From NCBI GenBank assembly GCA_030018135.1, contig JASEGJ010000001.1, positions 1 to 64,000 on the forward strand: 64,000 nucleotides of DNA, given 5' to 3'. Shown one piece after another: positions 62,500 to 63,033 of this stretch. The stretch is from Candidatus Hodarchaeaceae archaeon. GTDB taxonomy: Archaea; Hadarchaeota; Hadarchaeia; Hadarchaeales; Hadarchaeaceae. Under the pieces are notes generated by a model. It was not told where the DNA came from, made no database searches, and was given only the letters and a program-made list of their open reading frames with translations. Every line of letters begins with the position of its first letter. Position 1 is the first letter of the stretch. The position numbers and the translations under genes are program-made.

Positions 62500-62808
62500 T
62501 CACTTTATGTCTATCATATCGGGCGAGAAACCCATCTCGATGAGTGCCTCTTTAACCCTCGCTTTGTGGTCCCCCTGGAGTTCTATCTTGCCATCCTTCG
62601 CCGTTCCACCACAAGCCAGCTTGGACTTTAGATTCTTCGTCAACTCCTTAATATCGAGCTGTTTCTCGTCAATGCCCTCAACGATTGTTACCTTTTTTTT
62701 GAACTTTCGTTCTATTGAATACACATTTATCCGCTGTTGCTCGCGTGCGATCTCCTCGCACACGCAAAGCTCCTTGGGTAACCCACACACCTTACATACT
62801 TCTGGCAG
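62500..62808 (-). CDS. sui1: Translation initiation factor aIF1/SUI1, apparent CTG start
   Basis: TAG CTG CCA GAA GTA TGT AAG GTG TGT = (M)[35 protein letters not shown]. Confidence 0.9.
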
Positions 62809-62811
62809 CTA

Positions 62812-63033
62812 TCATGCACCTCCTTTCCTTTGAGTTTCCTTCATTATCGTCAGTATCCGCGCTATTGTGTGTCTAAGTTCGCGAATCCGCCCGGGGTTTT
62901 CAAGCGAACCACCTGCCGCTGCGACTGCGCGCTCCCTTGCCAGCTCCGCACGGAGTTCGCGGAGCTTTGCTTTCATTTCCTCTATGCTCATATCACGGAT
63001 CTCATCGGGTCTGAGTATCGCCACCGTCTTCAC
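62812..63033 (-). CDS. rpl29: 50S ribosomal protein L29
   Basis: EIR.MS..E, ENPGRI.EL..TIARILT. Confidence 0.95.

Follow-up and report, generated by a model that had tools for sequence, protein, structure and literature searches.

A probable CTG start codon on the aIF1 gene of Hadarchaeaceae and a possible negative feedback acting through it

In this work, we analyzed the start region of the gene encoding the initiation factor aIF1 (SUI1) in the genome (G000) of an uncultured hot-spring member of the Hadarchaeaceae, within a stretch of 64,000 nucleotides referred to below as the window. The results make it very probable that the CTG at position 62808 of the minus strand is the true initiation codon of the only aIF1 gene of this genome, because this codon is conserved at the nucleotide level among relatives, lies at a fixed distance of 8 nt from a Shine-Dalgarno (SD) sequence and has no conserved canonical alternative.

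The start region and its gene product

The features of the region, with their coordinates in the window, are the following:

62500-62808, minus strand: aIF1/SUI1 coding sequence, 102 codons counted from the CTG plus the stop at 62502-62500
62806-62808, minus strand: proposed initiation codon CTG, shared by 19 of 25 family (Hadarchaeota) genomes and by all 24 distinct CTG loci
62809-62811, minus strand: in-frame TAG abutting the CTG; the codon at this place varies in relatives
62817-62823, minus strand: SD sequence GGAGGTG, within the last L29 codons and 8 nt before the CTG
62812-63024, minus strand: ribosomal protein L29 gene, with a GTG start and a TGA stop at 62812-62814 (PF00831, 73.4 bits)
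62792-62815, minus strand: out-of-frame ATG (62815-62813, overlapping the L29 stop as ATGA) and its 7-codon ORF, MIAARSM followed by a stop
62788-62790, minus strand: GTG of codon 7, the first in-frame canonical codon, rejected as start
62758-62796, minus strand: predicted N-terminal zinc knuckle C5-x2-C8-x6-C15-x-C17, placed by alignment of the Cys residues with 4mo0
62024-62296, minus strand: gene of the RNase P protein subunit p29, 3' of aIF1, with an ATG start (PF01868, 78 bits)

Read on the minus strand, the sequence runs AAA GGA GGT GCA TGA at the end of L29, then TAG, then CTG CCA GAA GTA TGT AAG GTG TGT, in the order that the initial annotation had described, and from CTG 62808 the aIF1 frame is open for all 102 codons up to its stop at 62502-62500. 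That annotation had also placed the CTG 8 nt after the GGAGGTG, which agrees with the SD being located at 62823-62817, and had considered that the in-frame TAG blocks any start further upstream; this codon (62811-62809) does stand directly before the CTG. Its further claim that the N-terminal CxxC is complete only when translation begins at the CTG holds as well, given that the earliest in-frame ATG, GTG or TTG is the GTG of codon 7 (62790-62788), which lies 3' of the first Cys of the CxxC, and a start there loses this Cys. The out-of-frame ATG (62815-62813) sits only 1 nt past the SD register. The start column of the preceding L29 gene is canonical in 16 of 17 genomes when the frames are aligned from stop to stop.

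The gene product carries a SUI1 domain (PF01253) at residues 23-94 with 76.8 bits, the cut-off being 25.5, and its ORF is the sole SUI1 match in the 1.1-Mb, 45-contig assembly. Residues 1-102 align end to end with residues 1-102 of M. jannaschii aIF1, whose structure is solved (PDB 4mo0; also in 5jb3 and 5jbh), with an E value of 2.2e-37. Both proteins have 102 residues and the same N-terminal C-x2-C...C-x-C knuckle, whose four Cys residues are invariant in a 10-sequence alignment (A1) and match those of 4mo0. The CTG-encoded L1 stands opposite M1 of 4mo0, so that the two differ in having a Met first in M. jannaschii where the present gene has CTG. The gene order L29 - aIF1 - RNase P p29 - S17 is common to all 17 genomes compared.

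Public predictions for the aIF1 of relatives start at five different codons and give proteins of 102, 99, 96, 93 or 87 aa. Some of these annotations (the 102-aa NCBI proteins) already use the CTG and others a downstream GTG or TTG, the shorter products being left without part or all of the zinc knuckle. Several NCBI records label this aIF1 as "stress response translation initiation inhibitor YciH". Where the ribosomal protein cluster containing aIF1 ends, the window also holds, between SecY and a cytidylate-kinase-like gene, a gene for an EMC3/TMCO1-like membrane protein (52726-53535, minus strand; PF01956, 84 bits).

Conservation of the CTG and of its distance to the Shine-Dalgarno sequence

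The aIF1 start region was compared in this genome and 40 relatives, the family being represented by 25 genomes from 12 genera. In this lineage-wide alignment of 5' regions, the near-cognate CTG is kept four positions before the first Cys in 19 of the 25 family genomes and 10 of the 12 genera, and none of these 19 genomes has an in-frame ATG, GTG or TTG between the CTG and the preceding stop. That stop lies one or two codons 5' of the CTG in 17 of them; the other two (G016 and G008) have an open upstream stretch of 27 and 13 codons, respectively, also devoid of ATG, GTG and TTG. Together with five further Hadarchaeota loci from a wider survey, the 19 genomes make up the 24 distinct CTG loci considered below. 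As these come from independent assemblies, the objection that the CTG is a sequencing error falls. Furthermore, the aIF1 start is spanned by contigs of 92-96% likeness that come from four other hot-spring runs in three studies, and among 40 of the 72 places at which they differ none affects the CTG, the TAG or the SD.

The remaining family genomes show other starts: GTG at the position of the CTG in two genomes of one genus, ATG two codons upstream in G022 and G009, and GTG three codons upstream in G017, while G007 presents 33 open codons without a canonical start before the zinc knuckle and an ATA where its congener G022 has the ATG. The locus of G007 (L041; G007:C4:1-420, minus strand) reads ATA AGC TCG CAA GAG, which suggests that the family also includes a near-cognate AUA start. 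Within part of a single genus, loci L022, L065 and L067 have lost one base in the CTG region relative to L020 and L025, by which the ATG of the L29 "ATGA" enters the aIF1 frame (ATG AGC GCG CAR GAG); this ATG is only 1 nt past the SD register, and these genes probably depend on restart after L29. In the four sister families, all 16 genomes have an ATG one codon later than the CTG, preceded by CTA, CTG, TTA, CGA, ATA or GTA, and their proteins read L-M-P-E versus L-P-E in the CTG family. A tree of 12 proteins did not recover the family as one clade (supports of 69-75 on key branches), and a single origin of the CTG within it rests on the taxonomy as given.

The pattern of substitution around the codon is informative on where translation begins. 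All 19 CTG genomes have different coding sequences and yet the same CTG as codon 1, in contrast to the other conserved Leu columns (10, 56, 60, 64, 77 and 89), each of which uses four to six synonymous codons in the same genomes. Across the 24 loci, codons 2 to 5 vary mostly at third positions (CCA, CCG, CCT or CAA, CAG at codon 2; GAA or GAG at codon 3; GTA, GTG, GTC, ATA or ATC at codon 4; TGT or TGC at codon 5). The codon before the CTG, which is TAG here, is GAG, GCA, GCG, CAG, GGG, AGA or AAA in relatives; being unconstrained, it is presumably not translated, and this freedom, together with the third-position changes after the CTG, places the onset of coding-type constraint exactly at the CTG. 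The CTG itself is under constraint at all three bases. Downstream, the earliest canonical codon is codon 4, 7, 10, 16 or one between 29 and 88, in 12 of the 24 loci no earlier than codon 29, and no conserved alternative canonical start was found among the 24 CTG loci. Codon 7 in particular is GTG in only four of them and GTC, GTT, ATA or ATC in the rest, which argues for a start at the CTG and against GTG 62790, the competitor that the initial annotation had named.

Of the 24 CTG loci, 21 have GGAGGTG as the SD and three a variant that differs by one base, and the distance of the SD to the CTG is 8 nt in every one of the 24. The 16S 3' end was taken from the relative G006, a member of another genus that also has the CTG; it reads ...GATCACCTCCTTT and is fully complementary to GGAGGTG (the 16S rRNA gene is missing from the assembly of G000). 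As a reference for the spacing, 467 genes of G000 have a canonical start that is corroborated by alignment with a canonical start of G006 (289 ATG, 79 GTG and 99 TTG), and 176 of these 467 have an SD of at least 5 nt. Measured in the same register, the spacing in those 176 is 5 nt in 78 genes, 6 nt in 30, 8 nt in six and 11 nt in three. The spacing of the aIF1 CTG is within the working range and 3 nt beyond the optimum.

In three of the sister families (f2 to f4), 12 of 13 loci have their ATG 11 nt past the SD register, and the remaining one (L002) has it at 12 nt. If the spacing optimum there is like that of G000, the sister-family aIF1 may also start in a poor context, and the ATG of these loci (L002-L021) may be a poor-context AUG analogous to that of eIF1. 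A loss of 3 nt converting CTAATG into CTG would fit both the difference in spacing and the reading L-M-P-E versus L-P-E. No conserved RNA structure was detected around the start (consensus fold of 23 loci, -1.29 kcal/mol; single-sequence z-score, +0.36).

The initial annotation had also proposed that an out-of-frame AUG competes with the CUG. Such an ATG, opening the ORF MIAARSM, does exist here, and its conservation could not be sustained: it is present in 14 of the 24 CTG loci and absent in 10, with an ORF ranging from 7 to at least 22 codons among the CTG loci. As it occurs in only 14 of 24, the out-of-frame ATG is dispensable and no essential part of the arrangement.

Specificity of the CTG start to aIF1

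The start columns of neighboring genes were examined by aligning 30 conserved frames around aIF1 from stop to stop in 17 genomes, of which 11 belong to the family and six to sister families; 28 of these frames form the L3-to-L14e cluster. Pfam named 22 of the 23 cluster genes scanned, and the names L3, L4, L23, L2 and S19 rest on gene order. In G000, the conserved start column is occupied by ATG, GTG or TTG in 27 of the 28 cluster genes and aIF1 is the sole exception; L23 and S4e start with TTG, L29 and L30 with GTG, and the others, aIF1 aside, with ATG. The other initiation-factor genes are canonical too, with ATG for aIF1A and aIF5B, TTG for aIF2-beta and aIF2-alpha, and GTG or TTG for aIF2-gamma. 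At the aIF2-alpha gene (G000:C8:15701-16510), a CTG of G006 aligns with the TTG start of G000, and G006 has a TTG one codon upstream, so that a canonical start is at hand there.

The genome-wide comparison used G006, rebuilt from 60 stretches. After removal of shadow frames, 734 reciprocal best ORF pairs were obtained between G000 and G006, 677 of them with at least 90 codons; the scope of the ortholog test is therefore one comparison genome and ORFs of at least 90 codons with a closed 5' end. Two of the 677 pairs, L2 and aIF1, share an identical CTG that is aligned upstream of the first canonical codon in each member. The CTG of L2 was rejected as a start, being merely the codon that precedes the aligned ATG, which leaves aIF1 as the only gene with a conserved near-cognate start among these pairs. 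Besides, we compared 26 aligned near-cognate columns located at least three codons before the first canonical start, and only that of aIF1 combined an SD in both genomes, an opening of the frame at that point and complete identity as far as the following canonical codon. The possibility raised in the initial annotation that CTG starts are equally common at unrelated genes is not borne out (none of 27 other cluster genes; one of 677 pairs, aIF1 itself), and the CTG start is peculiar to aIF1 rather than a habit of the genome. According to the sections of Belinky et al. (PMC5622118) consulted, switches to CUG account for two of 61,358 ancestral AUG starts across 36 prokaryote groups, and it is because such switches are so rare that a family-wide CUG is unusual.

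Less selective measures were of limited use. Counts of SD-anchored codons over the raw genome or over all long ORFs were swamped by coding GGAGG and by shadow ORFs. In a cleaner gene set, CTG was preceded by an SD of at least 6 nt in seven of 137 cases versus 2.6% for all non-canonical codons, a weak signal, and no convincing second CTG start was found among those seven. A measure asking whether the HSP extends upstream of the first canonical codon picked out 102 of the 734 pairs, most of which reflected SD triplets read as Gly/Glu or an overlap with the preceding gene, and the aligned-codon tests were used instead; a measure based on the first aligned canonical column was too strict for use. 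Three conserved G000/G006 "ORFs" of 67-88 codons lack a usable start (G000:C3:16279-16542, C7:171-431 and C17:13415-13615, all on the minus strand) and may be RNA genes or other non-coding elements.

The initiator tRNA was not recognized in G000 or G006 by ARAGORN, run with and without introns, or by motif searches, nor in G006 with the Rfam tRNA model, which gave only 36 matches in this near-complete genome. Many tRNA genes of both genomes carry introns and the anticodons assigned by ARAGORN are doubtful there. Nothing points to a dedicated CUG-reading initiator tRNA, though one may exist.

Outside Hadarchaeota, the CTG start does not recur among the loci surveyed. Among the best 80 loci for aIF1 alignment, sampled at one genome per species and biased to query-like sequences, 62 belong to other groups with a zinc-knuckle aIF1, and these have ATG in 55 cases, TTG in six and GTG in one, the latter from Aenigmatarchaeota. 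The CUG start is a habit of one family and no general rule for archaeal zinc-knuckle aIF1. All six loci labelled Methanomethylicia, Methanosuratincola or Nitrososphaerota (L089, L093, L094, L095, L098 and L117; match at positions 401-700 of each) have the TTG, in the context AAC TTG AGY GAR ATH TGT with an in-frame stop four codons upstream, and may represent a second lineage with a fixed weak aIF1 start.

Possible feedback and rival explanations

A negative feedback of aIF1 through its own CUG start could follow from this arrangement. The 7-nt SD at the end of L29 would hold the 30S complex at the aIF1 start, and the initiator Met-tRNA would pair with the CUG despite the mismatch at the first position. 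Initiation at this codon would be inefficient and would depend on how strictly near-cognate codons are rejected; because aIF1 is expected to enforce this rejection, more aIF1 would mean less initiation on its own mRNA. We infer both the use of Met-tRNAi and the low efficiency of the CUG, and that the feedback as a whole operates is a tentative proposal, drawn by analogy, to which we give slightly less than an even chance. In the portions of the literature consulted, aIF1 lets the 30S complex of S. solfataricus bind AUG and reject an AUU mRNA (PMC4705826) and favors discrimination against non-canonical codons (PMC6237735). 30S binding and rejection of non-canonical starts are documented for the aIF1 of S. 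solfataricus and that of P. abyssi (PMC4705826, PMC6237735), and for the aIF1 studied here both are assumed by homology. If aIF1 also disfavors CUG, its own initiation would fall as aIF1 rises; the portions consulted contain no report of discrimination against CUG specifically, the S. solfataricus case being AUU. One of them describes aIF1 as stimulating initiation generally (PMC6237735), which could blunt the feedback. Against an indispensable CUG stand the ATG of the 16 sister-family genomes, without exception, and the other starts of six of the 25 family genomes.

Feedback via a factor's own poor start site is textbook knowledge for bacterial IF3 and eukaryotic eIF1. Butler and colleagues reportedly described in 1987 the AUU start of infC (IF3) together with translational autorepression, and Ivanov and colleagues are said to have described in 2010 the poor-context AUG of eIF1 together with negative autoregulation. 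The gene studied here resembles infC in being a gene for a start-codon-fidelity factor with a conserved non-canonical start behind a good SD. It differs in that IF3 is unrelated to aIF1, the codon is AUU there and CUG here, and the aIF1 gene is embedded in a ribosomal protein cluster; moreover, the feedback is demonstrated for infC, whereas for the present aIF1 we only infer it. With eIF1, aIF1 shares homology (SUI1 fold; E value of about 1e-6 to eIF1 chains) and a poor initiation site on the factor's own mRNA. However, eIF1 keeps an AUG in a weak Kozak context read by scanning, in contrast to the near-cognate codon and SD found here, and in this respect the sister families, with their ATG at an unusually long SD spacing, resemble eIF1 more closely. 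A full-text search, which left subscription journals largely outside, turned up neither an account of aIF1 autoregulation nor a report of archaeal aIF1 genes that begin at a near-cognate codon. No cultured representative of the family is known to us.

The main and serious rival to feedback is a static down-tuning, in which the CUG is the real start and merely keeps aIF1 low on a highly expressed ribosomal protein transcript, with no sensing of its level. The location of aIF1 within the ribosomal protein cluster, with L29 on one side and RNase P p29 on the other, speaks for it, as a catalytic factor would plausibly be required in smaller quantities than its neighbors, and the sister families may reach the same end with an ATG 11 nt (12 in L002) past the SD register in all 13 f2-f4 loci. 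The turnover of starts within the family (CTG, GTG, ATG and perhaps ATA) likewise fits a selection on output rather than on the codon. Nevertheless, a TTG, a GTG or a weaker SD would also lower the output, and yet the CTG is unchanged in 24 loci and comes with a perfect SD; besides, if aIF1 rejects near-cognate codons, a dependence of the CUG on the aIF1 level is almost automatic. We regard static tuning as somewhat improbable, while taking it seriously.

A restart of ribosomes that have just terminated on L29, held by the SD and using the nearest usable codon, would instead tie the output of aIF1 to the translation of L29. It is favored by the position of the SD inside L29, by an L29 stop that in most loci precedes the CTG by 3 nt (as here, where TAG follows it) or by 3-6 nt, and by the ATG variants (G022, L065 and L067), whose location 1 nt past the SD register fits restart better than SD-led initiation. 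In G016 and G008, however, the frame is open upstream for 27 and 13 codons and the L29 stop is in another frame, with the CTG and the 8-nt spacing kept nonetheless, and restart leaves the invariance of all three CTG bases unexplained. As an account of its own we consider it unlikely; it is compatible with either feedback or static tuning and may contribute to either. That the CTG is no start at all, owing to an assembly error, to truncation at a downstream GTG or TTG, or to readthrough or frameshifting from L29 or from the out-of-frame ATG, is very improbable and already largely refuted, even though several public predictions of close relatives begin downstream (99, 96, 93 or 87 aa) and most loci have L29 and aIF1 in one reading frame. 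The CTG recurs in 24 distinct loci of independent assemblies, which opposes an assembly error, and truncation is opposed by the lack of conservation of the downstream canonical codons, which often fall within the SUI1 domain, and by the P/Q-E-V/I-C stretch that is conserved after the CTG with synonymous change. Readthrough would have to pass two consecutive stops here, TGA TAG, and a TGA or TAA in relatives, and the out-of-frame ATG that the remaining route needs is missing in 10 of 24 loci.

Returning to the feedback through the CUG, a family-wide and gene-specific CUG start on aIF1 offers a concrete and testable archaeal counterpart case, and its natural leader (SD, 8 nt, CUG) is suited to in vitro experiments on archaeal 30S subunits. 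The finding also matters for annotation, as public aIF1 predictions disagree on the start. It is tempting to speculate, with more reservation than conviction, that the three domains have independently put the gene of their start-codon proofreader behind a bad start, and that in Hadarchaeaceae a single 3-nt deletion (CTAATG to CTG) turned a poorly spaced AUG into a stringency-sensing CUG, through which aIF1 would hold its own level and the genome-wide fidelity of initiation at a set point.
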